A stretch of DNA of 20,000 bases from an uncultured virus (IMG/VR IMGVR_UViG_3300037863_000082) (IMGVR_UViG_3300037863_000082), one strand, 5' to 3'. Positions 7,203-20,000 are shown, numbered from the stretch's first letter. Numbers and translations: made by a program. Notes: generated by a model not told the origin, from the letters alone.

Positions 7203-7524
7203 ACTCTACCCCACTGATAGTAACTGTAACTGCGTTACCTGGCTGAGTAATATAAAGACTAGAGGCTGCCGGCACAACAATCGAAGTGTCATAAGCTAGG
7301 GTGTTTCCAACTGTCAATTCTGCCTCGTTTAATATCTTGTTAGAGTTTGCCGCCTCCGCACCACCAACAAGAATATGTAAAGAAAATGTTGTTGTTGCGT
7401 TAGAGGTATTTGTTCCATTGATTGACTTGATTATAGCATAGCTCCCTGCCGCTTCGGGAGAGTCGTAAATTGAACCAATTGTGTCATTGCCTATATACAA
7501 TAACGAAGGCACTAAAGCTGCCAT
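7192..7524 (-). CDS. Small beta-rich virion protein, paralog of 14215-14517
   Basis: 110 aa with GGAGG RBS upstream. Shares the pattern [IL]YxxP...AxxxxI...Nxx...ISGVE with the 100-aa ORF at 14215-14517. Overlaps the start of the giant ORF by 11 nt. Confidence 0.8.
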   Translation of the reverse strand: MAALVPSLLYIGNDTIGSIYDSPEAAGSYAIIKSINGTNTSNATTTFSLHILVGGAEAANSNKILNEAELTVGNTLAYDTSIVVPAASSLYITQPGNAVTVTISGVEYVA

Positions 7525-7537
7525 TACTTGCTACCTC

Positions 7538-8218
7538 CTATGCGTATGTCCAAAACAAAACCTCCAGATCACTAGTACCATTTTTCCACTCAGTACCATC
7601 ATACACTAGTATATCATCTCGTTGGGGATCTGTTATGCTAACATCAGAAAGATCTCCTATTACTGATGGAACACCTGGTAGATCGCTAAGGTTTATCTGA
7701 CCAGCTTCCCAGTTTCCTGTTGATGAATTATACAGAATAGTGTCTGAGTTAGATGGTGTCTCTGCAGAAACGTCATCAATATCATTCAAGGACCTGACTG
7801 GGTCTGCCCAGCTTATATCATACTCGTCGCTAGAATTTTTTTGAGGAACCTGTCCCGTTGTACCGCCTGATAGGTTAAGATTTCCTATAGACATGTCTGT
7901 GTAGTTGTTTGCTTCTGACTGTGCTGAGGCAATATCGTCTGCAATGTCTGTAAAAAAGTTTGGATTGTTCTCTATTGCTGCGGCAAGCTCTTCCAGTGTG
8001 TCGAGAACTTCTGGTGCGGCACCAATAAGGTCTTGAATTAATTGCTGAACGCTTGAGGCATCTTCAAAATAACCTAAGTCATTCCATGGCGTAATTCCAT
8101 CGCCTATTTTAAACTTATTATTATCTAGCTCATATCCAATTTCTGCAGCAGCGAGAATGGGGTTGACAGAAGTCCACTGAGACTCAAGTCCGCGCCTCTG
8201 CTGCATTCTTTGTATCAT
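7538..8218 (-). CDS. Tail fibre-associated protein with Mtd_N/hyaluronidase-like N-terminal domain
   Basis: QRRGLESQWTSVNPILAAAEIGYELDNNKFKIGDGITPWNDLGY matches the Mtd N-terminal anchor pattern. Also APEVLDTLEELAAAIENNPNF fibre motif and two LxDxxDV...LxY..xW.. repeats. GGAG RBS. Confidence 0.85.
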   Translation of the reverse strand: MIQRMQQRRGLESQWTSVNPILAAAEIGYELDNNKFKIGDGITPWNDLGYFEDASSVQQLIQDLIGAAPEVLDTLEELAAAIENNPNFFTDIADDIASAQSEANNYTDMSIGNLNLSGGTTGQVPQKNSSDEYDISWADPVRSLNDIDDVSAETPSNSDTILYNSSTGNWEAGQINLSDLPGVPSVIGDLSDVSITDPQRDDILVYDGTEWKNGTSDLEVLFWTYA

Positions 8219-8243
8219 TTTTTCTCCATAATAGTTCTATTTA

Positions 8244-8252
8244 ATTATAACA
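8244..8252 (-). promoter_or_regulatory. Extended -10 promoter TGTTATAAT
   Basis: TG-n-TATAAT in the intergenic gap upstream of 7538-8218. The same TATAAT element recurs before other structural genes. Confidence 0.6.
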
Positions 8253-8273
8253 TTTTTATTAAAGTTGAGTTTG

Positions 8274-8762
8274 TTACTTTTTTACAACATCCCAACACTG
8301 GCCTTCTTCATTCCAAGAGTACCTTTTGTCATCTGGCAAGTCTTTCATCGGTGGATTTACTGGAGCAATCCAAGAATTATAGTTAGAATCAAATATCCAG
8401 GAAGGATAAGGCTTGGCTGGCAGCGGGGTAGTAATTTCAAAGCTGCCGGCAAAACTGTAGTTTATGTCCTCTATCCAGGCTTCAATCTTATATTTTGTGT
8501 TTGGCTCTAGCTGATCTACGACAGAAAATGCAAGAATGTCCTCATTGCTTTCTATGTACCTTACCCTTGATGGTGGGAAGTTTCCAAATTGAATAATATC
8601 ATTATTTGAATTAAAAAACTTAAACCCCAGTTTTACGTTAACAAATTTTACGCCAAGACCATTGTTGTCACGAACGCCGATTCCAATATCTACAGATGAT
8701 GGATCTGCCTCTCCATCTATAGTCCAATTCTTTTTATCAACGTGTGCAATAAGTTTAATCAT
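8274..8762 (-). CDS. Hypothetical tail-associated protein
   Basis: 162 aa. C-terminal PYPSWIFD...WIAPVNPP...YSWNEEGQCW resembles small partners of Gly-rich phage fibre proteins. ATG lies 6 nt after TATAAT (8769-8774), so probably leaderless. Confidence 0.8.
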   Translation of the reverse strand: MIKLIAHVDKKNWTIDGEADPSSVDIGIGVRDNNGLGVKFVNVKLGFKFFNSNNDIIQFGNFPPSRVRYIESNEDILAFSVVDQLEPNTKYKIEAWIEDINYSFAGSFEITTPLPAKPYPSWIFDSNYNSWIAPVNPPMKDLPDDKRYSWNEEGQCWDVVKK

Positions 8763-8769
8763 TTTACTA

Positions 8770-11700
8770 TTATACCTTATATCTAACTATAACAATGCCG
8801 GGAAGGCCTGGGCTGCTGGGACCCATTCTTTGATTTGGATTTCCCGCAGCTTCTCCGGAGGCCCTTCCGCCACCGCCGCCGCCACCGCTTGTAGTCGCTG
8901 CTCCTCCGGAAGAAGAAGTTCGAACACCACCGTTTCCACCCCTAGCATATTCTGTGATTAGGCCGGTTATTCCAGAAGTTCTACCTAAAGATGCTACTCT
9001 TACTTGAGTTGCGGCAATGGGGTTTCCAGAACTTCCTCCAGCGCCGCCTTGGCCATTGTTTGATGTTATCTTTGAACCTGTATTTCCCTGACCAGATATT
9101 CCTGTTCCAACAGAACCGCCTCTCCAAACGGCACCACCGCCCGATCCACCACTCTTCCCGCTGCGGCCCTGGCCGGACCCCCCGCCTCCGCCACCAGTAG
9201 CTGTGACAACAAAAAAAGAAGAAATTCCTCCGTTATTTCCTGGCGGACACACTGTGGGTGACCCAACAGAGGTTCCTCCGGAACCAATCAAAATAGTAAA
9301 ATTTTCTGGAGAAGAAATCTCTATAGTACCGGAGACAACACCACCGGCGCCGCCGCCCGCTCCGGCCTCATACTCATTGTCTGCTGCGCCACCAGAGGCC
9401 CCTCCGCCTACAATAAGGTATTCTAATATATTTGCATTTGGATCGTCACTTAATCCAAGGACAGAAAACTCTCCGGAACCTATTGAAGAAAATTGGTGAA
9501 CCCTATAGATAATCCCTTGATCGTCTATATCAAAAGTTGTTCCACCCGTAGCGGTTAAAGCAGTAAATGCACTAAATCCAATTGGATATCTAATTATTAC
9601 TATTCCGCTGCCGCCTGGGCCGCCTAAGCTGTTTGTGATAGCCCTAGCCCCCCCACCGCCGCCGCCTAATCCGTTAGATCCGGAAGGAGCGGTGTTTGTT
9701 ACAGAGTCATAGTTTTGTCCGTTTGCTCCACCACCGGAACCTCCGGAGGCTCCTGGGTTATCTATACTTACAGAACCCGCCCCACCGCCACCGCCGTAAG
9801 AAAGATAGGATCCCGATAAATTAAATGGCTTACCGTTGCCTCCGGATCCGGGTATTGTTGATGATCCATTAGCCCCAACCTGAGAGGCTCCACCACCTCC
9901 ACCAGAAGATCCGGATCCATCTGATGAGCCCGAGCCGTTGCCGCCAAGATACCCTTGTATAGAAGATCCAGAACCAGTCCCTGCACCTGGGGTACCATTT
10001 CCAGCAGCCCCACCGCCAGATCCACCATTCTGTCCAGCTTTGTCTAGGGTTACAGAAGAGCCACCCCTTGCCCCACCACCTCCACCAATAGAAGAAACCC
10101 CAAACACAGAAGAGTTTTCTCCTTTGCTTCCCCTAGAATTAATAAAAGATGCTAAAGCGCCGTTTCCAACAATTACGTTGTATACTCCAGGAGATATAAC
10201 TGAAGTTCCATAGACTAGACCGCCGCCTCCGCCACCCGCCCCAGAGCCTAGGGAGCTCCCAGCGCCACCAGAACCTCCTCCGGCAACAGAAAGGAAAGAT
10301 ACGGTATCGCTTGATTCTCCTAGACTTATTACCTCAAATGTTCCGCTAGCGGAAAAGATATGAGATCTGTACCTAAGTCCACCATCGTTATATTCAACAA
10401 TAGTGCCACCAATTGCTTGTATTTGTCTAACCGGATAGCTGAGATCTACCCAGTCTGCCCCATCAAATCTTTTTGTTTCTTCAAAGTCTACCCAGTCCGA
10501 GCCATCCCACTTTTTTCCAACGTAGCCGTCTGTTTGTCCGACAACACCACCAATATCTTTAAATATAGTTATGTTTGGCTTAACCAATATGGAAAACTCC
10601 CGATCTACCGTTGTTGGAGAAACGCTTAAAAACGTTCTAATTGTAAAAGTATTATCTCCAGTGAACTGTGGTACGCCGTATATTCTTCCTCTTAAAATAT
10701 CTAATTCTAGGCCAACGGGAAGGGTGCTAGAAATAAGTGAATACCCCGTTGCGTTTGCTACAGCAATATTGGCAACATAGTAAGAGCCAACTCGAATTTC
10801 TGGGTTAAGTGTAGAATTTTGATTTGCAAACTCTGTAACCTGTAAAACAAAATCTTTGTTAGCGCTTCCTAATTCGTTTGCAGCACTTATAGTAAACGAA
10901 TATTCTCCTACGGTTTCAGGAATACCCTTCACGATCCCATTAAGATTGTCTATAGAAAGACCGGGTGGTAGAGAGCCATTTACAATATCATAATACTCTG
11001 CGTCTTGGGCAAACACGTCAGCATAAAAAGAAGATCCTAGGACTGGCTTTGCTGTATCTAGGATCAAGTAGCCATTTGTATCTCCTCCACTGGTATCAAT
11101 AAAAGACTCTCCAAGATTGGAAGCAGATAGGGATGTCCAGTACGGAATTGGCTTAGAAGTTTTTACGTTTAGTGGCGCAGTCCACTCTGAGCCCCTGGAA
11201 ACGCTTTCGCCGTTGTATATGCGGTTTGCAGCTAAAATCCTAAACCAATACTGTGTATCACTATCCAAGCTATCAACAACAATGTTTGTGCTTTTTGTCT
11301 CTACTTCAATGAAATCTTCTAGCTCCTGCTGCCCTCCGCCATTTGCTCCGGTCCTGCCGAATTGATTTTTAGAATATTGAATAACATACTTTTTTATTGG
11401 TACACCACCATCCGTTTCCGGCTTTTCCCATCTAAGTGTTACAGAGTGGTCTGTGGGACTGTGAACAGTAAAGTTTAAAGGCTTTGAGGGGACTTCTGCG
11501 TAAGTAAATTTTCCAACATAGCTTCTACCTGTTCCATTTGTTAATGGAGTTATGTTTGTCCCACTTAACGGCCTTGTCCCAAAAAAAACAGCTCCATTGG
11601 TGTTGTGTCCAAAAGAAACGGTTTGCGCTGTTTCCGAATCATCTACCACAGCAAATATTGGAAGGATGCCAGACTCTTCAGTTGCTGAGGTAGAAATAAC

Positions 11701-11922
11701 TGGAAAGAAATTTTCTGTTAAAGCATTATTTACAACTAAATTAACCTGCCTAGTTTCTGACTGAGAAGCTATCCATAAGGATATTCCAGTTATGGCAATT
11801 GGCATATTGCCATTGTTGTCTCTTCTGGTTTCTGGTAACCTAAAGGTGCTTCTCTGTTGATTTGAAGAAGAGCTACTGTTGACTACGGAGTTTGAGCCAT
11901 TTATTGTTGATATTCCACTCAT
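8770..11922 (-). CDS. Multidomain tail protein: fibronectin type III + two putative Ig (He_PIG-like) + two glycine-rich domains
   Basis: FN3 signature PSKPLNFTV...VTLRWEKPETDGGVPIKKYVIQY...LDSDTQYWFRILAAN. Ig signatures GSLPPGLSIDNLNGIVKGIP and STLPVGLELDILRGRIYGVP. Two GG-rich domains, each ending GIVI[IV]RY. Confidence 0.9.
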   Translation of the reverse strand: MSGISTINGSNSVVNSSSSSNQQRSTFRLPETRRDNNGNMPIAITGISLWIASQSETRQVNLVVNNALTENFFPVISTSATEESGILPIFAVVDDSETAQTVSFGHNTNGAVFFGTRPLSGTNITPLTNGTGRSYVGKFTYAEVPSKPLNFTVHSPTDHSVTLRWEKPETDGGVPIKKYVIQYSKNQFGRTGANGGGQQELEDFIEVETKSTNIVVDSLDSDTQYWFRILAANRIYNGESVSRGSEWTAPLNVKTSKPIPYWTSLSASNLGESFIDTSGGDTNGYLILDTAKPVLGSSFYADVFAQDAEYYDIVNGSLPPGLSIDNLNGIVKGIPETVGEYSFTISAANELGSANKDFVLQVTEFANQNSTLNPEIRVGSYYVANIAVANATGYSLISSTLPVGLELDILRGRIYGVPQFTGDNTFTIRTFLSVSPTTVDREFSILVKPNITIFKDIGGVVGQTDGYVGKKWDGSDWVDFEETKRFDGADWVDLSYPVRQIQAIGGTIVEYNDGGLRYRSHIFSASGTFEVISLGESSDTVSFLSVAGGGSGGAGSSLGSGAGGGGGGLVYGTSVISPGVYNVIVGNGALASFINSRGSKGENSSVFGVSSIGGGGGARGGSSVTLDKAGQNGGSGGGAAGNGTPGAGTGSGSSIQGYLGGNGSGSSDGSGSSGGGGGASQVGANGSSTIPGSGGNGKPFNLSGSYLSYGGGGGAGSVSIDNPGASGGSGGGANGQNYDSVTNTAPSGSNGLGGGGGGARAITNSLGGPGGSGIVIIRYPIGFSAFTALTATGGTTFDIDDQGIIYRVHQFSSIGSGEFSVLGLSDDPNANILEYLIVGGGASGGAADNEYEAGAGGGAGGVVSGTIEISSPENFTILIGSGGTSVGSPTVCPPGNNGGISSFFVVTATGGGGGGSGQGRSGKSGGSGGGAVWRGGSVGTGISGQGNTGSKITSNNGQGGAGGSSGNPIAATQVRVASLGRTSGITGLITEYARGGNGGVRTSSSGGAATTSGGGGGGGRASGEAAGNPNQRMGPSSPGLPGIVIVRYKV

Positions 11923-11928
11923 AATAGG

Positions 11929-12345
11929 TCACCAAAACCATAAGTCGCCAACTTGTGGATTGTCTGGCTCCGTTTCTTGTACTGATACCTTCAATGGTCC
12001 ATTATCTGTTGGAGTAATCCACTGATCTGTGTCCGACTTTGCCAATGTTATTGTATGGTACGGACCTCTAGAAACTAAAGAAGAAATTCCTAATATCTGC
12101 ACACCAGAAGATGGGGAAACGGTGATTACTCCATTTCCTAATTGCATTATTGTGATCGTTGACCCAATTGGTATCACAGCTTCTGAATTTTGCGCAATAG
12201 TTACAGAAACATTATCATCACTTGTAAACTTTAAAAGGTTTCCGGCGTCGGATGACTGAACTGTATAAGAAGTATTTGAAATCGAAAAAACATCTGGGTA
12301 AGATGGCCCATCAAAATTCTCAGGCCTAAAGGTAGTTTTGCCCAT
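11929..12345 (-). CDS. Tail fibre-related protein
   Basis: 138 aa. YTVQSSDAGNLL...IPIGSTITIMQLGNGVITV domain is also present in 13224-14204. C-terminal EPDNPQVGDLWFW fibre-type motif. Confidence 0.82.
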   Translation of the reverse strand: MGKTTFRPENFDGPSYPDVFSISNTSYTVQSSDAGNLLKFTSDDNVSVTIAQNSEAVIPIGSTITIMQLGNGVITVSPSSGVQILGISSLVSRGPYHTITLAKSDTDQWITPTDNGPLKVSVQETEPDNPQVGDLWFW

Positions 12346-12369
12346 CTGTCTCTCTTTCTTCTAAAACAA

Positions 12370-13221
12370 TTATACCAGGTTTAGAGGATACCTGATTATA
12401 ACAACACCAGATCCTCCAGATCTGTTATTTCCTCCACCACCGCCAAAACCATTAAGCCCTGGATTATTTGAGCCTCCACCACCGCCAAAACCTCCGTTAC
12501 CCGATGTTAGAGTGGCTCCAAAATTTCTTTGAAAACCTCCGGCACCTCCTCCAGCGTAATAAATGTTTTCACTTGTTATTCTAGAAATAAGTCCCCTGCC
12601 ACCATTTCCTGCCTGGGATCTTGTTGCAACGGAACCTGGCAAAGAAGCCCCACCACCGCCTCCGGAAGAGAATCCACCATCTATGTATTGTATACCGGCT
12701 CCACCAGGATTTCCTTGTCCAGATGAAGACACCGATCCTCCAATTCTGCCAGCGGTACCTTGAATGGATGAGCCTCCACCACCAGAAGCTCCAGAAGAGC
12801 CATTGGTTGCTGTTGTGTTATTTATAAAGTTTCCGCCGGCACCTCCTCCTGCTGAAATCACAGAAGCAAACGAACTAAGGCCACCATTCTGTCCAGCATT
12901 AGAAACTATTATTCCTCCGGCGCCTACTAAAACTGAATATGCAGTTGGTGACAAAGTGACTGTTCCGGACCTAAATCCACCGGCACCACCACCACCACCT
13001 ATTTGATAGCCACCTGAACCACCGCCACCAATTATTAAATACTCTACGGATCCATTAGTTGTACCAAGGTTACCAACAACAAAGTCATTGCTATCTTGAA
13101 ACATATGAACTCTGTATCTGATATCTCCATCAACAACATCTTCTACGGCGTTTCCACCAGAAGCAAATATTGGAGAGTATCCACCAAAAGACGCAAAGTT
13201 TCTAAAACCAAGAAGAGGCAA
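12370..13221 (-). CDS. Glycine-rich domain tail protein
   Basis: Single Gly-rich domain (RYRVHMF...VEYLIIGGGGSGG...GGSGVVIIRYP) paralogous to those in 8770-11922. Preferred start is TTG at 13221 (MPLLGFRN), after GAGG and just past the upstream stop, rather than ATG 13242. Confidence 0.85.
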   Translation of the reverse strand: MPLLGFRNFASFGGYSPIFASGGNAVEDVVDGDIRYRVHMFQDSNDFVVGNLGTTNGSVEYLIIGGGGSGGYQIGGGGGAGGFRSGTVTLSPTAYSVLVGAGGIIVSNAGQNGGLSSFASVISAGGGAGGNFINNTTATNGSSGASGGGGSSIQGTAGRIGGSVSSSGQGNPGGAGIQYIDGGFSSGGGGGASLPGSVATRSQAGNGGRGLISRITSENIYYAGGGAGGFQRNFGATLTSGNGGFGGGGGSNNPGLNGFGGGGGNNRSGGSGVVIIRYPLNLV

Positions 13222-13223
13222 TT

Positions 13224-14204
13224 CTAAACCTCTACAATCCATGAGGCTACAACTTCAGATGCTGAATCACCAAAAGAAGTAACGCTCAATACCCCAACCC
13301 TGTCTCCGTCTATTGATACTGGTTTCTGACCTAAGAATGTCCAGTCTGTCGGAAAAGTTAGAGTCTTTGTTGCTGTTCCGTTAATTAAAAGAACGGTTTT
13401 AATTGATCCTGGCCTATAGTTTTGTCCAGAGAATGTACTGTTGCCGGTAACTGTTTTACGAACAAGACCGGTACCACCAGCAAAATTGACAACAATAGAT
13501 GTACCAGAAGATTCATTAGTTACATCTATATCGTAATTTGGGGCAGAGACTATTTGATCAAAATCTGGATCAAACGTTACATCTATGTTTTCTGAAAAAT
13601 TAAGATCACCGGAAAGAACCCATTCGTTTTCTGCAATCTTAACAATCTTGGATTCCGAGTATCTGCCGGCTAGCCTGTTTATGCTGTCCCTACTTCTGAC
13701 CGATACTGATCCAGATTCGGCAATTACGTTTACTAATCCGGATCCGATTTGAACTATTTTAACAACCTGTCCTACTGGAAACGGAACGGTTGTATTTGTT
13801 GGAACATAGATAATTGTTCCTATGTTCGAGTTAACCAAAATTGTTTTGCCTCCATCGGCAAGCTCAAGTGTGTGGGTAGCAGACTTTGTTGATAGCTTTA
13901 CATCGTCCCCAACAAATCTCCAACCGTTACTGTAGTACTGAAGTTGATTCAAGTTTTGTATAAAACACACAACGCCATTAGATGGAGATGGGATTACTGT
14001 ATCTCTTGCTGCAACTGTTGCAAAGTTGTTTATTCCAGCCTGAGAGGTTAGAACACTCTCAAAGCTTACCGAGTTTTCAAACGTATGTGACGCGCTCCAA
14101 ACATAGGGCAGGGTTGCATTTGCTGTTCCGGCCATAGCATACCAAGTATCGGAATCTTCGTCATAAATGTACGCAAGATTTCCTGTATTGTCTATGGTGG
14201 CCAT
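13224..14204 (-). CDS. Tail fibre/adaptor protein
   Basis: 326 aa with AAGGAG RBS. Contains FATVAARDTVIPSPSNGVVCF, a central domain like 11929-12345, and a C-terminal beta domain (LTFPTDWTFLGQKP). Confidence 0.85.
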   Translation of the reverse strand: MATIDNTGNLAYIYDEDSDTWYAMAGTANATLPYVWSASHTFENSVSFESVLTSQAGINNFATVAARDTVIPSPSNGVVCFIQNLNQLQYYSNGWRFVGDDVKLSTKSATHTLELADGGKTILVNSNIGTIIYVPTNTTVPFPVGQVVKIVQIGSGLVNVIAESGSVSVRSRDSINRLAGRYSESKIVKIAENEWVLSGDLNFSENIDVTFDPDFDQIVSAPNYDIDVTNESSGTSIVVNFAGGTGLVRKTVTGNSTFSGQNYRPGSIKTVLLINGTATKTLTFPTDWTFLGQKPVSIDGDRVGVLSVTSFGDSASEVVASWIVEV

Positions 14205-14214
14205 ATGTTACTCC

Positions 14215-14517
14215 TTAAGAAATTTCTACACCGCTGATGTGAAAGTTTAGTCCGGAAGAAGAGGCAAAGCCTTCAATTATCTCTTCTGATGCAATAACTT
14301 GCTTAATGTCAAAAACAATAACATCGTTTCCAGAAACAGGGCTTTCATCAATAATTGTGACACCATCTAAACTTATCGTAGCACTTAGAGTTGCTGTTGT
14401 GGTGTTTGTTACAACAATGTTTGTAACCACTGCCTCTTGACCATTTGGCACAGCATAAAGTGTTCCGTTTGAGGTTGGTGCAGTTCCTCTATAAAGCGTT
14501 GCTTGTAAAATTGCCAT
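14215..14517 (-). CDS. Small beta-rich virion protein
   Basis: 100 aa, LYAVPNGQEAVVTNIVVTN...FHISGVEIS. Paralog of 7192-7524. Confidence 0.82.
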   Translation of the reverse strand: MAILQATLYRGTAPTSNGTLYAVPNGQEAVVTNIVVTNTTTATLSATISLDGVTIIDESPVSGNDVIVFDIKQVIASEEIIEGFASSSGLNFHISGVEIS

Positions 14518-14533
14518 TTTCCATATCTTTCTT

Positions 14534-15184
14534 TTAGTATAATCCCATAATGGTTGCTATTTTTTCTTCCTCTATATCTGAGGGAGCCCAAGCAACACCA
14601 AGAGTAGCAGTACTGTCAGCTGTTAAAACGTATCCGTTCTGACCAACAGAAAGACTGTCTAAATCTGTAGCAGAGTTTCCGACAAGGATATCTCCCTTTG
14701 CAGAAACGGCATTTGCAAAATCATTAATTGGAATCCAGGCCACCAGGTCAGCGTCGTAAACATAAGCGGTTTTTAGAGCAGAGTCTTTGTCAACCCAAAC
14801 CACTCCACTACTTAAGTCTTCTGTTGGTTCCGAATTAGAATAAAAGACAGAAGCATAGTATGTTGTTGAAGGTCCTCCAGAAACAGAAGAATCAACCCAG
14901 ATATATCCGTCTGGAATCCCCTCTTCCAGATTTGTTCCAGATGGTGTTCCCGTTGGTTCTGTACCAACAAAGTCTCCACCGGTTCTATAATATTCCAGTA
15001 TGTCTGCAAACTTTTCTGCTACCGCCTGAAAGTGACCTGCTATAGAGTTTTCTACAATAGATGCAGAAGACTCATTTGCTGGTTCGCCACCGCCGTAGTG
15101 ATATTGTTTTAGGGCATCTTGAATATTGGCATCGTCATCCAAATCCGGAATCTGAGTGTTAAAAAAGAATCCAACATTAGCCAT
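14534..15184 (-). CDS. Tail fibre-associated protein
   Basis: 216 aa. EP...GxxWVD repeats and C-terminal KGDILVG...LSVGQNGYVLTADSTATLGVAWA fibre-type motif. Confidence 0.85.
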   Translation of the reverse strand: MANVGFFFNTQIPDLDDDANIQDALKQYHYGGGEPANESSASIVENSIAGHFQAVAEKFADILEYYRTGGDFVGTEPTGTPSGTNLEEGIPDGYIWVDSSVSGGPSTTYYASVFYSNSEPTEDLSSGVVWVDKDSALKTAYVYDADLVAWIPINDFANAVSAKGDILVGNSATDLDSLSVGQNGYVLTADSTATLGVAWAPSDIEEEKIATIMGLY

Positions 15185-15202
15185 ATAGTATCACCTAGGC
15201 AA

Positions 15203-15775
15203 TTATACCACAGTAACGGAAACGCTAAATTCTTTCTCTCCTACAACTGGTGACCACGTTCCGCTAGAAAGCTCTGATGCATGAATGGTTGGTGAAAAGA
15301 AAATATTTGATCCTGAAGAAGTTAGGTCTGTAGGATATTCTATCGAGTATGCAACTGGATTTGTTCCAGAAAAAGAAATCTGGACTGCAAAATTATCTGG
15401 TGTTGCTGCCCCTCCGGAAAGCGTAGCGGGAATAATTTGATGAACTGGAATATTCAGTGTGACCTCTCCAGAAACAAAGGTAGGAGATGGTCTGCTGGAA
15501 TATGCTTCTGGAATTAGCTTAATAACGCTTACCCACTGTTCTACTCCATCTTGATTTAAATACTGATACATAAAAGAAAATTCATCGTCGTCTGCGTCAT
15601 AGTTAATGTACATATCAAAAAGGTTTGGGGACAATCCGGCAGTTGCTGGCTTTCCAATACCGGCAAAAATTCTACTTCCTCTTTCTCCCGATGATCCGAA
15701 GTCTAGCTCAACGTTAACAGAAGCTGGACCGCCTAGAACAGCAATTTCTGGATTAGAAAGTACGATCTCTGCCAT
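15203..15775 (-). CDS. Hypothetical structural protein (tail/baseplate module)
   Basis: 190 aa, coupled to the upstream gene by a TAATG overlap at 15775. Short GSSGERGS collagen-like stretch. Confidence 0.8.
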   Translation of the reverse strand: MAEIVLSNPEIAVLGGPASVNVELDFGSSGERGSRIFAGIGKPATAGLSPNLFDMYINYDADDDEFSFMYQYLNQDGVEQWVSVIKLIPEAYSSRPSPTFVSGEVTLNIPVHQIIPATLSGGAATPDNFAVQISFSGTNPVAYSIEYPTDLTSSGSNIFFSPTIHASELSSGTWSPVVGEKEFSVSVTVV

Positions 15776-16152
15776 TACGAAGAAACCCCGGTCGCGCCAG
15801 AAACGTGATCGGTGACGGTGATGTTTCCGGTTAGCAGTGTGTACTTTTTGTCATAAACAACATCAGTTTTAGAAATTTCTATATCATAAACATATGAGGT
15901 TCCGGCCTCTAGGTCAATTCCTACGTCTGGCTCAATAGCACAAAGAATGTGTGTCTTGTCTGCTGAAACAACAGCATAACCACTGATCTGATCCGCAACA
16001 CCCGTAGCGCCCCTCGATGTGGAAATGGTAAAAAGAGGAGTTCCATAGCCTGTTAGATCAAAGATGCCACCGGCGGAGTCTTTTGGGTAAACCCTAAACT
16101 CGAAGGTGTCTCCTCGATAATAATTAAAGTTGTAGCTTCCTGGAAATGCCAT
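15775..16152 (-). CDS. Baseplate upper protein (BppU_N)-like beta-sandwich protein
   Basis: 125 aa, YRGDTFEF...FDLTGY...YVYDIEI...LLTGNITV pattern. GAGGAG RBS and upstream TATAAT at 16170-16175. Confidence 0.7.
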   Translation of the reverse strand: MAFPGSYNFNYYRGDTFEFRVYPKDSAGGIFDLTGYGTPLFTISTSRGATGVADQISGYAVVSADKTHILCAIEPDVGIDLEAGTSYVYDIEISKTDVVYDKKYTLLTGNITVTDHVSGATGVSS

Positions 16153-16177
16153 ATATACTCCTCTTCATCATTATACA

Positions 16178-16843
16178 CTATGGAGTTACAAAATTTATTA
16201 AAATAGGCTCTGGGTCTACGGCTTCTCCGTCAATTTGAATTTCAAAATGTAGGTGTGGTCCGGTTGAAGTTCCTGTGTTACCAATCCCACCGATGTGTTG
16301 TCCCGACATCACAACGGCACCAACAAAAACATTTTCTGGTATTGAATTTAATTTTAAGTGAGCGTAGACAGTTCTCCAATTTTCCGCTTTTCCATTTATT
16401 GTAACTATGTGATCTATGTAAATATGAAGACCAAATCCTCCACTATACTCTAATTGCGAAACTAGTCCGTCCGATGCGGCAAATACAGGAGTTCCGGGCT
16501 TGTGTGCAAAATCAATACCTTGATGAAAACTTGAACAAGCCGAGCAAGACGCGCTTCTATTGCCATACCCGCTATCTATGATATTTTGTTTGACGGGCCA
16601 GGAGAATTTTGGAGTAATCTCTATCGTTGGATATCTGGCTGGTAAAATAGAGTAGCCATACTCTTTCACAACAAAAGGACCAGGCTCTAAACCTGTTGCT
16701 GTAATATCTACTTGATCTATTTCAAGGTCAGAAGAAAAAGCTTTTGAATCAGATGATCCTACAAGTAATATAATAATTAAACTAATAACGATATTAAACT
16801 TAAACATGTTTTCTAGGTTAACATTGTTTTTTAAAAAAATCAA
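16178..16843 (-). CDS. M23 family peptidase (probable endolysin/cell-wall hydrolase) with N-terminal hydrophobic segment
   Basis: Zn ligand motifs HQGID (HxxxD) and TGPHLHFE (HxH), plus YAHL. N-terminal IVISLIIILLVG. The start may be ATG 16807 instead. Confidence 0.92.
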   Translation of the reverse strand: MIFLKNNVNLENMFKFNIVISLIIILLVGSSDSKAFSSDLEIDQVDITATGLEPGPFVVKEYGYSILPARYPTIEITPKFSWPVKQNIIDSGYGNRSASCSACSSFHQGIDFAHKPGTPVFAASDGLVSQLEYSGGFGLHIYIDHIVTINGKAENWRTVYAHLKLNSIPENVFVGAVVMSGQHIGGIGNTGTSTGPHLHFEIQIDGEAVDPEPILINFVTP

Positions 16844-16879
16844 CCAGGATATAATTTATACAATTTAATAAAATAAAAG

Positions 16880-16930
16880 AATAGTACCTAGATCAGTTGG
16901 TATGAGAGAAAAACTGATTTAGGTACTATT
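16880..16930 (-). terminator. 19-bp stem-loop, probable intrinsic terminator/attenuator upstream of the M23 gene
   Basis: AATAGTACCTAGATCAGTT (16880-16898) / AACTGATTTAGGTACTATT (16912-16930), one mismatch, 13-nt loop. Followed on the minus strand by CUUUUAUUUUAUU. Confidence 0.6.
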
Positions 16931-17040
16931 GGGTTTATAAGTTATAAACGTTACACAATTGTAACACAATTCTCAGTAAAACAGTCTAAAACTATCAGGA
17001 AAGTGTGATACCCTTAAAATACTTTTTACTATAAAGAAAG

Positions 17041-17100
17041 ATATATATAATATATATATATATATATATACTATATATATAGTATATAAGTGTATATAGA
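17041..17100. repeat. (TA)n tract with 24-bp perfect palindrome
   Basis: (TA)10 at 17051-17070. TATATACTATATATATAGTATATA at 17065-17088 is self-complementary. Confidence 0.9.
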
Positions 17101-17109
17101 TAAAAGCAA
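17081..17109 (-). promoter_or_regulatory. Sigma70/SigA-type promoter TTGCTT-N17-TATACT
   Basis: -35 at 17109-17104, -10 at 17086-17081, 17-nt spacer. Fires into the TA tract toward the M23 gene. Confidence 0.55.
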
Positions 17110-17123
17110 ATTACGCGAAAACT

Positions 17124-17528
17124 TTATTTGTTAAGATCTTTTTCAATCTTATTTAAACGTTCTTCAATTTTGTCAAACTTTTGATCACCTTCAGCTAAAC
17201 GAAGATCTATACTATCCGTCTTATCATAAATCTCATTCACGCTGATCTCAATTCTATCGACTGCGTCTTTTACAGAAGAGCCACCATTATTCTTTAGCTG
17301 GCCATCAATTTCATTAAGTCTTTCCATCACCCCTGGAACACGATCACGACCAGGTCTTGATTCAATTCCTGACCAGTCTTCCATAAACTTTTCCCATGCC
17401 ATAGCCAAAGCACTTATTCTTTTACCTAATGGCAAAATTATTTTTCCAATGAGCAGCCACGTGGCAAGGACCGTTCCGAGGGCTCCAAAAATTTGTACAA
17501 CCATTAGTTGATCGGGATTTATTTCCAT
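17124..17528 (-). CDS. Lysis-module membrane protein (DUF2746-like, holin-associated)
   Basis: One N-terminal TM segment, then PGVMERL..IDGQLKNNGGSSVKDAVDRIE and a coiled coil, a pattern I recognise from actinophage proteins adjacent to lysins. Confidence 0.8.
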   Translation of the reverse strand: MEINPDQLMVVQIFGALGTVLATWLLIGKIILPLGKRISALAMAWEKFMEDWSGIESRPGRDRVPGVMERLNEIDGQLKNNGGSSVKDAVDRIEISVNEIYDKTDSIDLRLAEGDQKFDKIEERLNKIEKDLNK

Positions 17529-17811
17529 GACTCTTTAATTATAAATCCCTTTTTTATAAAAATATTATATTTTAAGTTTCGCGGTAAAGTTCGCGGCGAA
17601 TAAGAGTACCCAAACCTGTATGTATGACACATACAAGTATCGGTTATATACTGGGATATTCCGATATCACCGAATAGCCTTAAGCCTTATAGCCCTTATA
17701 GCCAGATAGTGTTTTATGTATGGGATAGTTAGCTCTGATCATTAGTCAGGATGACTCTTTTGATCAGATGAAACTCTTCATGCCCTCAAAAATATTTGCT
17801 ATACTCTATGT

Positions 17812-18009
17812 ATGACAGAAGTTAGATTTACGGATTTGTTTGACCCTAGACAGCCTAGATCAGATAAACAACTTGTTGATGCTCGTTTAGCTATTTGTAA
17901 TGATTGTCCCTGGCTAGATAAACGTCTAGTTAAATGCCGTCAATGTGGTTGTTTTATGAAATTAAAATCAACCTTAAAACAAGCTGAATGTCCTATAGGT
18001 AAGTGGTGA
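17812..18009 (+). CDS. Cys-rich protein (DUF6171-like), probably leaderless
   Basis: RLAICNDCP...CRQCGCFMKLK...CPIGKW. TG-C-TATACT (-10 at 17800-17805) lies 6 nt before the ATG. Confidence 0.85.
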   Translation: MTEVRFTDLFDPRQPRSDKQLVDARLAICNDCPWLDKRLVKCRQCGCFMKLKSTLKQAECPIGKW

Positions 18010-18012
18010 TTA

Positions 18013-18099
18013 ATGTATATTCCCAATGAGAAGAAAAGCTCTAATCAGGATGACGTTACACTATTTGATCCCTTCGAACATATGAGTGAAACATTCTAA
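18013..18099 (+). CDS. 28-aa mini-ORF MYIPNEKKSSNQDDVTLFDPFEHMSETF
   Basis: Starts 3 nt after the previous stop (GGTGA upstream) and abuts the next ORF. Confidence 0.45.
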   Translation: MYIPNEKKSSNQDDVTLFDPFEHMSETF

Positions 18100-18186
18100 A
18101 TGTTTGATGATACTGCATCATACAACAACCACCTCTGGGATGATACCTGGATGATTACTCCAAAGAAAGAAGAAAATGACTCTTAA
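18100..18186 (+). CDS. 28-aa mini-ORF MFDDTASYNNHLWDDTWMITPKKEENDS
   Basis: TAAATG junction with the upstream ORF and 11-nt overlap with the HTH gene. Confidence 0.45.
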   Translation: MFDDTASYNNHLWDDTWMITPKKEENDS

Positions 18187-18334
18187 ATACCATCATGATC
18201 CTACATACCTTCAGAAAAAAATAGATTTAGGAATGAAACCTAAAGAAATTGCTAATGAGCTTCGTGTTTCGTATAAACTTGTTGAATTGTACCTTCACAA
18301 ATTCAATATGCCCTTCATATCTCAAAAACCATAG
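18176..18334 (+). CDS. 52-aa helix-turn-helix DNA-binding protein
   Basis: MTLKYHHDPTYLQKKIDLGMKPKEIANELRVSYKLVELYLHKFNMPFISQKP. GMxxxEIAxELxVSxxxVxxYL is an HTH pattern. Below the ORF-track size cut-off. Confidence 0.75.
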   Translation: MTLKYHHDPTYLQKKIDLGMKPKEIANELRVSYKLVELYLHKFNMPFISQKP

Positions 18335-18463
18335 TAATAATGTTATAAAAATGTTATATTTCTAAAATATAAATTTTCTGAAAATTTCTTAATCTTGTAT
18401 GATACACGATCTACAGATATATTTTATTTCTATTAGTGCGCACACTGGCACGACCTTATATCT

Positions 18464-18510
18464 AATGGCCCGGACGCCATCATAAAGAATGACCCGGACG
18501 CCATCATAAA
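18464..18510. repeat. Tandem direct repeat, 23 nt x2 (period 24)
   Basis: AATGGCCCGGACGCCATCATAAA (18464-18486) and AATGACCCGGACGCCATCATAAA (18488-18510). Confidence 0.9.
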
Positions 18511-18544
18511 AAATACCCCTAGGATTTTTTTTATCCTAGGGGTA
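18508..18544 (-). terminator. Intrinsic terminator for the minus-strand mini-genes
   Basis: Perfect 12-bp stem TACCCCTAGGAT/ATCCTAGGGGTA (18514-18544) followed by U6 on the minus strand, 16 nt after the stop at 18561. Confidence 0.8.
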
Positions 18545-18560
18545 GGGGGTGGCGCTTGTA

Positions 18561-18755
18561 CTAAGCGACCACACCCAAGCGACCAAACAATTCTTCCCAA
18601 GTGGCTTGGGTATCCATCAAGATTGAAAAGTAACCTTCACCTTGACCAATATTCAGCTGAAAAATTTCAGCCTCAGACATAGTTGCGAATCCTTCTGAAC
18701 GCATAATTTCTTGACCATCGAAACGGTCGTATACTCTAATTTCATAACGGTTCAT
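18561..18755 (-). CDS. 64-aa hypothetical protein
   Basis: AGAAAGAAGG RBS, its own promoter (18786-18807) and a downstream terminator. Confidence 0.8.
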   Translation of the reverse strand: MNRYEIRVYDRFDGQEIMRSEGFATMSEAEIFQLNIGQGEGYFSILMDTQATWEELFGRLGVVA

Positions 18756-18785
18756 TTCTGACCTTCTTTCTTATTGATTGATTCT

Positions 18786-18807
18786 ATTCTAGCACTGACC
18801 ACTGACA
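18786..18807 (-). promoter_or_regulatory. RecA-NDp/PafBC-type promoter TGTCAG-N10-TAGAAT
   Basis: Minus strand TGTCAGTGGTCAGTGCTAGAAT. One of three copies with identical spacing. Confidence 0.7.
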
Positions 18808-18809
18808 CT

Positions 18810-18947
18810 CTAGACTAGTTCGTAGTCTAGAATCTCACCTTCAGATATCAACTGACCATATTTAGCCAAGACTGACTTGCGAGAGAACTCGCTGAACGAT
18901 AGTACTTTGACTGACTTGTCAAACTGAGTAACTTTGATTTGGAACAT
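18810..18947 (-). CDS. 45-aa hypothetical protein MFQIKVTQFDKSVKVLSFSEFSRKSVLAKYGQLISEGEILDYELV
   Basis: AAGG RBS. Paralog of 19852-19998, with many synonymous codon differences. Confidence 0.85.
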   Translation of the reverse strand: MFQIKVTQFDKSVKVLSFSEFSRKSVLAKYGQLISEGEILDYELV

Positions 18948-18980
18948 TTTGTAACCTTACTTTCTTATTTATATAACTAT

Positions 18981-19029
18981 ATCATCTCATGGATAACCGC
19001 AAAAGTCAAATCCATTTGCGGCGTGTCGC
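18981..19029 (-). promoter_or_regulatory. Promoter GACACGCC...TTGACT-N17-GATGAT
   Basis: TTGACTTTTGC is shared with the divergent promoter at 19126. The -10 is non-consensus but has the TG extension. Confidence 0.5.
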
Positions 19030-19065
19030 AATAATAATTTCAAACTCACAGCTTGTTCACAGGTA

Positions 19066-19124
19066 TGCGCGCACGCCTGTGGATAACATGTGGATAAGTA
19101 TTTTTGGTCTACACGGCGTGTCGC
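19066..19124 (+). repeat. Unit-head repeat copy 1: TGCGCGCA palindrome + two DnaA boxes + CGGCGTGTCGC
   Basis: 38/39 identity to 19729-19767, then a 9-nt variable spacer and an identical CGGCGTGTCGC. TGTGGATAA at 19078-19086 and 19089-19097. Confidence 0.92.
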
Positions 19125-19125
19125 C

Positions 19126-19154
19126 TTGACTTTTGCCTAATAGTGTGAAATACT
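19126..19154 (+). promoter_or_regulatory. Promoter TTGACT-N17-AATACT with TG extension
   Basis: Upstream of the AAGGAG RBS and ATG 19185. Confidence 0.55.
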
Positions 19155-19184
19155 AGAGGTATCAAATAAAGAAAGGAGTTCAAA

Positions 19185-19322
19185 ATGAACTTACTAGATG
19201 AAATGGAACTGGCTTACTGCGATGTATGCGGTAACTATGTTCCTACCGTTGAAGATGAGGGCGACCTCTTCTGTGCGTATGAGTACGCTGAGTACCCTGA
19301 CATTGCCAACATTGTTGGCTAG
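19185..19322 (+). CDS. 45-aa acidic CxxC mini-protein MNLLDEMELAYCDVCGNYVPTVEDEGDLFCAYEYAEYPDIANIVG
   Basis: GAAAGGAG RBS and an upstream promoter. Confidence 0.8.
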   Translation: MNLLDEMELAYCDVCGNYVPTVEDEGDLFCAYEYAEYPDIANIVG

Positions 19323-19344
19323 TGTCAGTGGTTGCTGATAGACT
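19323..19344 (+). promoter_or_regulatory. RecA-NDp/PafBC-type promoter TGTCAG-N10-TAGACT
   Basis: TGTCAGTGGTTGCTGATAGACT directly after the upstream stop and before the AGAAAGG RBS. Confidence 0.7.
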
Positions 19345-19372
19345 TTAGATATAAACAAGAAAGGTAAAACTA

Positions 19373-19516
19373 ATGAATCAAATTGACTACTCTCCTACTT
19401 ATGGCAAGGTGTACGCCACCTGCCCACGCTGTGAGAAAACTTTTATCGTAGACGCTTTTGTGCCTCATCACTTTTGTAACTACTGCCAGGGTAGCCTGAC
19501 TAAGAATGGTGTCTAA
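19373..19516 (+). CDS. 47-aa zinc-ribbon mini-protein
   Basis: MNQIDYSPTYGKVYATCPRCEKTFIVDAFVPHHFCNYCQGSLTKNGV with CPRC...CNYC. AGAAAGG RBS. Confidence 0.8.
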   Translation: MNQIDYSPTYGKVYATCPRCEKTFIVDAFVPHHFCNYCQGSLTKNGV

Positions 19517-19656
19517 TGCTAAAAACTTTTATCGGTGTATTTTTGCTAGGGGTAATGTTATCCTTCAGTGAAAATCTCTATGGCTATGCTCTAATCCCCC
19601 TGGCTATCTGTGGCGGTATGCTAGCGCTAGGCTTAGCATTAGAAAGAAAAGGCTAA
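19516..19656 (+). CDS. 46-aa two-TM membrane mini-protein
   Basis: MLKTFIGVFLLGVMLSFSENLYGYALIPLAICGGMLALGLALERKG. TAATG coupling at both ends. Confidence 0.75.
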   Translation: MLKTFIGVFLLGVMLSFSENLYGYALIPLAICGGMLALGLALERKG

Positions 19657-19712
19657 TGGATATCTGCCAGGATTGTGATGGCAATTGTAAGGTGTGCGGC
19701 GTGTCGACTTGA
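19656..19712 (+). CDS. 18-aa Cys peptide MDICQDCDGNCKVCGVST
   Basis: TAATG-coupled start with AAAGG upstream. CxxC-x3-CxxC pattern. Its end runs through the CGGCGTGTCG motif. Confidence 0.5.
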   Translation: MDICQDCDGNCKVCGVST

Positions 19713-19728
19713 CAGGACACCAAGGCGG

Positions 19729-19787
19729 TGCGCGCACGCCTGTGGATAACTTGTGGATAAGTATTTTCGGGGTTATCGGCGTGTCGC
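19729..19787 (+). repeat. Unit-head repeat copy 2: TGCGCGCA + two DnaA boxes + CGGCGTGTCGC
   Basis: Direct repeat of 19066-19124 at offset 663. TGTGGATAA at 19741-19749 and 19752-19760. Confidence 0.92.
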
Positions 19788-19795
19788 GTAGGTAA

Positions 19796-19817
19796 TGTCA
19801 GTGGTTGCTGGTATAGT
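19796..19817 (+). promoter_or_regulatory. RecA-NDp/PafBC-type promoter TGTCAG-N10-TATAGT
   Basis: TGTCAGTGGTTGCTGGTATAGT upstream of ATG 19852. Confidence 0.7.
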
Positions 19818-19851
19818 AGAACTAAGAATAGAAAATAGAAAGTAGAAAAAA

Positions 19852-19998
19852 ATGATAATCCTAAAACTAAAAGTAACTAACCTAGATGGCTCTCAAGTCA
19901 TCAAGTCATTCAGCGAGTTTGCTCGCACCTCAGTGTTGGCCAAATATGGTCAACTAATCTCTGAGGGTGAAATCCTAGATTTTGAGGTGGTATCCTAA
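19852..19998 (+). CDS. 48-aa hypothetical protein MIILKLKVTNLDGSQVIKSFSEFARTSVLAKYGQLISEGEILDFEVVS
   Basis: Paralog of 18810-18947. The stop overlaps a further ATG (19998-20000), so the unit continues past the window. Confidence 0.85.
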   Translation: MIILKLKVTNLDGSQVIKSFSEFARTSVLAKYGQLISEGEILDFEVVS

Positions 19999-20000
19999 TG

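Follow-up and report, generated by a model that had tools for sequence, protein, structure and literature searches.

Positions 18,335 to 20,000 of a 20,000-nucleotide (nt) stretch of DNA from an uncultured virus (IMGVR_UViG_3300037863_000082), referred to at its full length as the window, carry mini-genes that are separated by a repeated regulatory unit, the head or cassette. These heads are probably control cassettes modeled on the binding sites of host regulators and repeated along the genome, where they would serve as substrates for homologous recombination between related phages. The cassette recurs through an early region of about 11 kb in a large (about 107 kb) uncultured phage found in salt-lake metagenomes. 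In its full form it begins at the stop codon of the preceding gene and comprises, in order, a conserved 10-nt motif (the C box) that is often followed by NN-TTGACA, a short hairpin with a GC-rich palindrome, two tandem DnaA boxes, a T-rich stretch, a second C box and, 9 nt further on, the promoter TGTC(A/G)G-N10-TAnnnT, which leads through a Shine-Dalgarno sequence into one to three mini-genes. An initial annotation of this DNA had proposed an array of cassettes that are exchanged, duplicated, or inverted at a symmetric crossover core in the manner of an integron or shufflon.

The palindrome TGCGCGCA occurs twice in the whole window, at 19066 and 19729, where 0.17 copies would be expected by chance; at least two were obtained in 2 of 200 shuffled sequences. 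Each copy stands at the head of a 59-nt direct repeat (19066-19124 and 19729-19787, 88% identity, offset 663 nt), which bears out the early observation that both are followed by the same arm. Four perfect copies of the 9-mer TGTGGATAA, the reverse complement of the DnaA-box consensus TTATCCACA, are present in the window, all of them within the two heads. The C box, CGGCGTGTCG, is found at 19019, 19114, 19697, and 19777, and at least four copies were seen in none of the 200 shuffles. All four are on the plus strand, so that the pairs of DnaA boxes are bracketed by direct repeats and the junction at 19066, originally described as head-to-head, is just weakly symmetric; the mirror arm to its left does exist in degenerate form (19047-19074 against 19728-19755, 28 nt, 79% complementary). 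The palindrome GTGCGCAC, which had been taken to bound the array on the left, lies at 18436 and at the syntenic position of the relative L019, but its single copy in the window is not significant alone, because at least one copy appeared in 11 of 200 shuffles.

Beyond position 20,000 the sequence is continued by the IMG/VR contig G002, which starts inside gene D, is 100% identical over an overlap of 127 nt, and runs for 29.8 kb. Window and continuation form a composite of 49,797 nt, for which expected counts were derived from first-order Markov simulations. The early region, between 18.7 and 30.4 kb, holds 14 of the 16 matches to TGTC[AG]G-N10-TA...T (0.81 expected over the whole sequence), all eight perfect DnaA boxes (0.51 expected), all eight C boxes (0.04 expected), and all 12 sites of TGCGCGCA. 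Nearly all of these motifs share one orientation. A check for further heads past the window, and for a regular unit size, had been suggested at the outset; the heads are there, but their spacing is irregular. The third, at about 20,161-20,426 (288-553 of contig L005), is the same cassette with an insert of about 170 nt that contains 3.8 copies of a 23-nt tandem repeat (100% match). Flanked by DnaA boxes, this repeat is reminiscent of an iteron array and is present in five copies in the relative L016 (152-447).

The 22-nt promoter pattern has four matches in the window against 0.35 expected, with at least four in none of 200 shuffles, and three copies lie in the cassette region (18786-18807 on the minus strand, 19323, and 19796). 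Two promoter types had been noted behind the heads, of which TTGACT at 19126 stands as SigA-like; TGTCAG at 19796 is rejected as a -35 hexamer, its spacing to the -10 being 10 nt, and is instead the -28 to -23 element of the 22-nt pattern. The same pattern, with a -28 to -23 element and a TAnnnT -10, is described for PafBC-dependent (RecA-NDp) promoters of Actinobacteria (PMC8635444, PMC6789036). These have the consensus tGTCgg(N10)tA(N3)T, in which the 5' element spans -23 to -28 and a -35 is lacking (PMC8635444), and are read by sigma adaptation (PMC8635444, PMC6789036). In the phage, the GTC triplet likewise falls at about -26 in the four matches of the window and the 14 of the early region, and the copies are mostly without a conserved -35. 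Two differences are apparent, in that TTGACA occupies the -35 position in 2 of 13 plus-strand phage copies, unlike in PafBC promoters, and in that the copies precede orphan mini-genes whereas known PafBC promoters precede DNA-repair genes. The likeness suggests promoters of the PafBC type, with PafBC dependence as a prediction from the pattern; the literature searched contained no paper linking PafBC to actinophage promoters.

The C box may represent a further host-regulator site. The motif recognized by WhiA is described as an asymmetric GACAC that lies on one strand or the other, upstream of the -35 (PMC10243135), and GACAC is present on the opposite strand in all eight C boxes, that at 19114 ending 2 nt before TTGACT. 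The C box together with the next hexamer (e.g., 19702-19714) also reads TGTC-N5-GACA, and full promoters hold TGACA-G-TGTCA; such repeated TGTC/GACA half-sites might mark a single DNA-binding protein. G002 encodes a WhiB-like protein (PHROG E = 2.5e-15), and a DUF932-family (PF06067) protein of the early region has homologues in actinophages, which together with the promoter type itself suggests that the host probably belongs to the Actinobacteria. A phage-encoded DnaA-like protein was found in none of five records, and a search for sigma region 4 gave one weak match below the cut-off. On this view the cassette would place early transcription under the control of proteins of the host: PafBC would adapt the SigA polymerase at the -26 element, the paired boxes, as predicted sites, would be occupied by DnaA, and a WhiA-type factor, perhaps with the phage WhiB-like protein, might act on the GACAC core of the C box. 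Binding, promoter activity, and recombination are all inferred here from sequence.

At the DNA level, positions 17000-20000 matched none of 50,697 phage records, and a tail-protein search there likewise gave nothing. Two versions of the head, searched in IMG/VR as exact patterns, had 0 matches each; relatives were recovered only via the mini-proteins and via the C box-plus-promoter pattern. The order of C box, TTGACA, hairpin, GC palindrome, DnaA boxes, C box, and promoter is kept in distant relatives, one of them a 99%-complete genome with no more than 66-69% identity in shared blocks of at least 150 nt. Altogether 81 distinct promoter instances were counted in 18 sequence sets drawn from 16 contigs (L022, L023, and L029 being left out as duplicates), with a downstream open reading frame (ORF) at 76 of them, and these ORFs fall into 49 families. 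In L021 and L031, the modules equivalent to the third head, ahead of the same gene family as that head, contain DnaA boxes and no tandem repeat. As for the palindrome, TGCGCGCA in this lineage is located 3 nt upstream of the DnaA boxes or right after the GC-rich hairpin ending the preceding gene, and most copies are in or just behind predicted GC-rich hairpins. Its general role as an intrinsic terminator was considered and rejected, a T run being found behind only 3 of the 12 sites. Distant relatives have GGCGCC, GGCCGGCC, or other GC-rich palindromes at this position, and the 99%-complete G004 has no TGCGCGCA anywhere; it is thus the GC-rich palindromic character that is conserved and not the sequence.

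The cassettes constitute repeated homologies of 60-120 nt, nearly all in one orientation, and relatives differ at these sites by deletions, duplications, replacements, and chimeric cassettes. The gene order of L016 is B', a truncated C, the iteron module, a new gene X, B, C, a module, and F, with gene B present twice. One junction in L016 coincides exactly with a C box that has the letters TCGG/GTGT in common with the start of gene C, and the L016 module is a chimera, its left end being of the 19729 type, its spacer of the 19066 type, its right end that of the third module, and its promoter of the TTGACT kind. The promoter of g45 is homologous to that ahead of gene F in L016. L019 has two other genes in place of B, C, D, and E and a 19729-type module directly ahead of a gene found at about 21,911 in the composite; the 19796 promoter and its leader are 96% identical in L019, where they precede an unrelated gene, and the divergent-promoter module of L019 is without palindrome and without DnaA boxes. 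Cassette pieces are 94-97% identical between genomes and neighboring genes 68-84%. G003 is 96% identical over 18539-18970 (the g45-g64 cassette) and 66-84% identical in other shared genes, and the rise from 66-72% to 96% occurs at 18539, within the terminator hairpin, which suggests a recent exchange, one end of which lies in that hairpin. Junctions are located at C boxes, DnaA-box ends, and promoter plus leader; the palindrome has one at its left edge in some cases only. Exchange and duplication of units at repeated heads, as initially proposed, are therefore borne out by the gene content, order, and copy number of relatives, all of which differ at the heads, but the junctions are scattered. 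Homologous or microhomology-mediated recombination is the likely cause, in line with what has been proposed for the PeSL (promoter-early stem-loop) cassettes of T4-type phages.

Population data were available from four salt-lake metagenome runs (X1-X4), as assembled contigs only. Among the loose contig ends listed, 16 of 19 lie inside cassette or terminator intervals, which together occupy 315 nt out of 2,501 nt covered. Three different left flanks abut the palindrome at 19732 and one at 19064. None of the 10 contig joints listed for the four runs changes strand, and the leftward operon keeps its orientation in all three relatives holding it (L019, G003, and L031), results that speak against the inversion once envisaged. 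In run X1, which may be the source of the window, a contig over 19697-20000 has a depth of 49 against 19 for 17500-19726, and two continuations past gene D have depths of about 28 each; one of these returns to a 19697-type C box, its contig joining 19971-20000, 133 other letters, and 19697-19726, which could reflect a circle, a tandem duplication, or a second strain. Depth gaps at 17920-18171 (X2 and X3) and 18844-18927 (X4) were not used as evidence.

Among known systems, the nearest counterpart is the PeSL cassette of T4-type phages, a repeated promoter and stem-loop unit of orphan-gene regions that is described as mediating modular shuffling (PMC2839356, PMC4122927). Both are repeated intergenic cassettes of about 100 nt with an early promoter and a GC-rich stem-loop (PMC2839356), both crowd in a region of small orphan genes, both bound insertions, deletions, and replacements between close relatives, and recombination between cassettes is the mechanism proposed for both. 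In the present phage this amounts to 14 promoter copies and 12 palindrome sites, of predicted structure and activity, in a region where 2 of 26 ORFs have a Pfam family and where junctions against L016 and L019 border the insertions and deletions. The phage is of a different kind, as reflected in the DNA search of phage records, and its promoter is of the PafBC -26/-10 type whereas that of PeSL follows the sigma-70 consensus; its cassettes add paired DnaA boxes and the 10-nt C box. Mini-circles are a feature of PeSL; here a circle is one of the candidate explanations for the X1 contig described above. For DnaA boxes in the early region of a lytic phage, the nearest precedent is the injection stop signal of T5-like phages, in which eight DnaA boxes lie among repeats and palindromes in the first-injected region (bioRxiv 10.1101/866236). 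That signal is described as one untranslated eight-box cluster in the terminal repeat, unlike the pairs spread over promoter cassettes here.

Several other explanations have to be weighed, beginning with the initially proposed site-specific system, in which a dedicated recombinase would exchange, duplicate, or invert units of about 650 bp at the TGCGCGCA core. Integron cassettes are promoterless, carry one recombination site each with a fixed crossover point, and have the IntI tyrosine recombinase beside the array, and a shufflon or invertible segment has a site-specific recombinase (Rci or a Hin/Gin-type serine invertase) and is found in both orientations in a population. Small gene units between repeats, with content variable among relatives, resemble these systems; the palindrome is also the leftmost conserved element of the head, where several flanks meet, position 19066 is flanked by the inverted paralogues g45 and D, and TGCGCGCA is restricted to the early region. 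Against this, PF00589 (Phage_integrase) and PF00239 (Resolvase) were found in none of eight related records, G004 included, with PF00589 matching in all 14 control genomes, and no recombinase family appeared among the ORFs scanned with PHROGs and Pfam, in keeping with the early remark that no recombinase is visible. Most junctions lie elsewhere in the cassette, and relatives that share the module have GGCGCC, GGCCGGCC, or other palindromes in place of the core, which leaves a symmetric crossover core unsupported. Spacing is irregular, every unit has a promoter of its own, unlike integron cassettes, and no inversion is seen among the 10 joints listed, in contigs from which rare forms would escape, or in the three relatives. 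A site-specific cassette system is largely refuted already, and we regard it as extremely improbable. It is also unlikely that the heads are ordinary duplicated early promoters, that is, regulatory DNA with no special part in recombination, at which junctions are seen since they would be lethal inside genes. Phage mosaics as a rule have their boundaries at gene borders, the conservation of the module in distant relatives shows selection for function, and the population data are contigs only, all of which would suit this explanation. It is opposed by the chimeric L016 module with its crossovers inside the cassette, by the nearly identical pieces that stand before unrelated genes in genomes otherwise 16-32% different, by the junction in L016 that coincides with a C box and its common letters, and by the duplication of gene B between cassettes.

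The DnaA boxes invite two further explanations. The modules could be replication origins or origin-derived duplicates, with the tandem-repeat copy past the window as a working iteron-type origin; this is compatible with the control-cassette reading, and we consider it rather unlikely. Iterons with DnaA boxes define the origins of iteron plasmids (PMC4980987), which the repeat insert of the third module and its five-copy counterpart in L016 resemble, and the 19066 module lies between divergent promoters. The basal unwinding system is described as one or more DnaA boxes followed by at least three NAN trios within 16 nt (PMC8287927), but such trios were found within 16 nt behind none of six module DnaA boxes. 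Moreover, no Rep-like protein, whose gene would be expected near the 17-23-nt direct repeats of an iteron-type origin, was detected with Pfam among 26 early ORFs, the equivalent modules of L021 and L031 do without the tandem repeat, and a better candidate is located at about 30,278-30,360 on the continuation (L013:4430-4520, minus strand). At this site two perfect DnaA boxes with a 3-nt gap are followed by a 4-nt spacer, the trios GAG TAA GAC, and about four copies of TGGAGTAAAA; with the box-spacer-trio pattern present it is a candidate replication origin, the NAN rule being permissive enough that the match could arise by chance. The paired boxes might otherwise hold host DnaA as a trap, titrating it from the host origin or pausing DNA entry like the T5-like signal, and the eight perfect boxes of the early region, equal in number to those of T5-like phages and far above expectation, are in line with this. 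Here, however, they come in pairs at fixed distances from promoters and not as one cluster, eight sites are a small sink, and first entry would require the region to lie at a genome end; a DnaA trap is in our estimate very unlikely.

The reading of the heads as control cassettes and recombination substrates can be extended to one in which they are portable sensor-promoters joining sites for DnaA, which initiates replication in the host, for WhiA, a regulator of cell division (possibly with the phage WhiB-like protein), and for PafBC, an activator that responds to single-stranded DNA. Early genes would then fire according to the replication and damage state of the cell, cassettes would move orphan genes inside one phage genome or from one to another, as circles or by unequal crossing-over, and the GC palindrome, specific to the lineage, would be a cruciform or Z-DNA element responding to supercoiling from divergent transcription. 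This extended form is decidedly unlikely. Certain observations weigh against even the simpler control-cassette reading. Of the 10 conserved C-box positions GACAC accounts for only 5, and overall it shows no enrichment (89 observed against 73 expected), so that, with a conserved box of 10 nt, the link to WhiA is weaker than the PafBC match. The actinobacterial host assignment rests on the WhiB-like gene, the DUF932 homologues, and the promoter type, the number of RNA runs containing the stretch was 0, and the reading does not account for the palindrome itself. The sequence past 20,000 is from another assembly (G002) and not from the window's own genome, and assembled contigs cannot reveal rare or active rearrangements. 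Finally, any mosaic phage should show its junctions in the control regions between genes, since those that interrupt a gene are lost to selection, and the location of the junctions alone is no proof of targeting.

The features of the region are listed in Table 1. Phage proteins for tail, baseplate, and lysis are encoded on the minus strand at 3-17528 of the window, and small genes begin at about 17,800. The leftward operon proceeds from the promoter at 19009 through g45, a second promoter at 18807, and g64 to the terminator at 18544-18514, and the rightward units consist of promoter 19126 with A, promoter 19323 with B and C, and promoter 19796 with D; the promoters of the two sides diverge, which places 19066 inside a divergent-promoter region. 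The description of the segments as self-contained expression units holds, each combining a promoter and a Shine-Dalgarno sequence with small ORFs that are intact in relatives (internal stops in none of six comparisons). Gene A and its L019 homologue share 80% nucleotide identity, with 13 synonymous and 10 non-synonymous codon differences and no stops, and gene C differs from its L016 counterpart by 7 synonymous codons and 1 non-synonymous codon. Judged by homologues free of internal stops, the mini-genes are real genes. PHROGs and Pfam scans assigned them no function, and among the 26 early ORFs scanned with Pfam only two had a family above the cut-off, DUF7178 and DUF932. A putative coding sequence of 18 codons, the Cys-rich ORF MDICQDCDGNCKVCGVST (19658-19714), runs into the 19697 C box and is kept in L016 with one amino-acid change. 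The interval 18335-18520, an AT-rich non-coding gap between convergent units, contains GTGCGCAC and the 24-nt repeat.

Table 1. Features of positions 18335-20000, in window coordinates.
Feature	Position	Strand	Basis or remark
GTGCGCAC palindrome	18436..18443	none	Non-coding gap left of leftward operon
24-nt tandem repeat AATGACCCGGACGCCATCATAAAA, 2.3 copies	18464..18518	none	TRF score 89; diverged array at same place in L019
Intrinsic-terminator-like hairpin ending leftward operon	18514..18544	minus	12-pair stem, then T run
Mini-gene g64, 64 amino acids	18561..18755	minus	ORF; 96-97% nucleotide identity with L019 and G003, no internal stops
PafBC-type promoter TGTCAG-N10-TAGAAT for g64	18786..18807	minus	Pattern match and promoter scan
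Mini-gene g45, 45 amino acids, inverted paralogue of gene D	18810..18947	minus	74-nt inverted repeat, 81% complementary, with 19906-19979
Sigma-70/SigA-like promoter TTGACT-17-GATGAT, TG before -10, for g45	18981..19009	minus	Promoter scan
C box CGGCGTGTCG copy 1, GACAC on opposite strand	19019..19028	plus	
Degenerate mirror arm (TGTGAACAA, TGTGAG...)	19047..19065	minus	Missing from equivalent L019 module
TGCGCGCA palindrome copy 1	19066..19073	none	Predicted within hairpin CACAGGTATGCGCGCACGCCTGTG
Two perfect DnaA boxes (TTATCCACA on minus), gap 2 nt	19078..19097	minus	No DnaA-trios behind
C box copy 2, 2 nt upstream of -35	19114..19123	plus	
SigA-like promoter TTGACT-17-AATACT for gene A	19126..19154	plus	Promoter scan
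Mini-gene A, 45 amino acids, Cys-rich	19185..19322	plus	ORF
PafBC-type promoter TGTCAG-N10-TAGACT for genes B and C	19323..19344	plus	Pattern match
Mini-genes B (47 amino acids, zinc-ribbon-like) and C (46 amino acids, hydrophobic)	19373..19656	plus	ORFs
C box copy 3 plus TTGACA	19697..19714	plus	C box-NN-TTGACA unit recurs in relatives
TGCGCGCA palindrome copy 2	19729..19736	none	
Two perfect DnaA boxes, gap 2 nt	19741..19760	minus	
C box copy 4, 9 nt upstream of promoter element	19777..19786	plus	
PafBC-type promoter TGTCAG-N10-TATAGT for gene D	19796..19817	plus	Pattern match
Mini-gene D, 48 amino acids, paralogue of g45	19852..19998	plus	ORF

The metagenome scan gave five contigs, of which three (L017, L018, and L020) were rejected as relatives; these three are high-GC bacterial DNA (68-70% GC) without homology to the window, and their matches are accordingly due to chance. 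In L018, at about 10001, the 21-nt string GCGCGCACGCCTGTGGATAAC in common with the window is found just upstream of an ORF whose beginning resembles a DnaA protein and was judged a chance match to a host-type DnaA-box context. The window also contains a (TA)n-rich tract of about 60 nt at 17041-17102, where the nearest record, G001, ends without reaching the studied region, and related contigs stop at about 17,100, 18,970, and 19,874 in window coordinates.

The repeats explain a practical problem, namely that assemblies of related phages break at them. If the control-cassette reading is correct, large uncultured phages would build their early promoters from copied host regulator sites, repeated a dozen times, and would provide a testable case of a phage that reads both the replication state and the DNA-damage state of its host. 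Cassette-mediated shuffling, so far a feature of T4-type phages, would then extend to an unrelated group of phages with another type of promoter.

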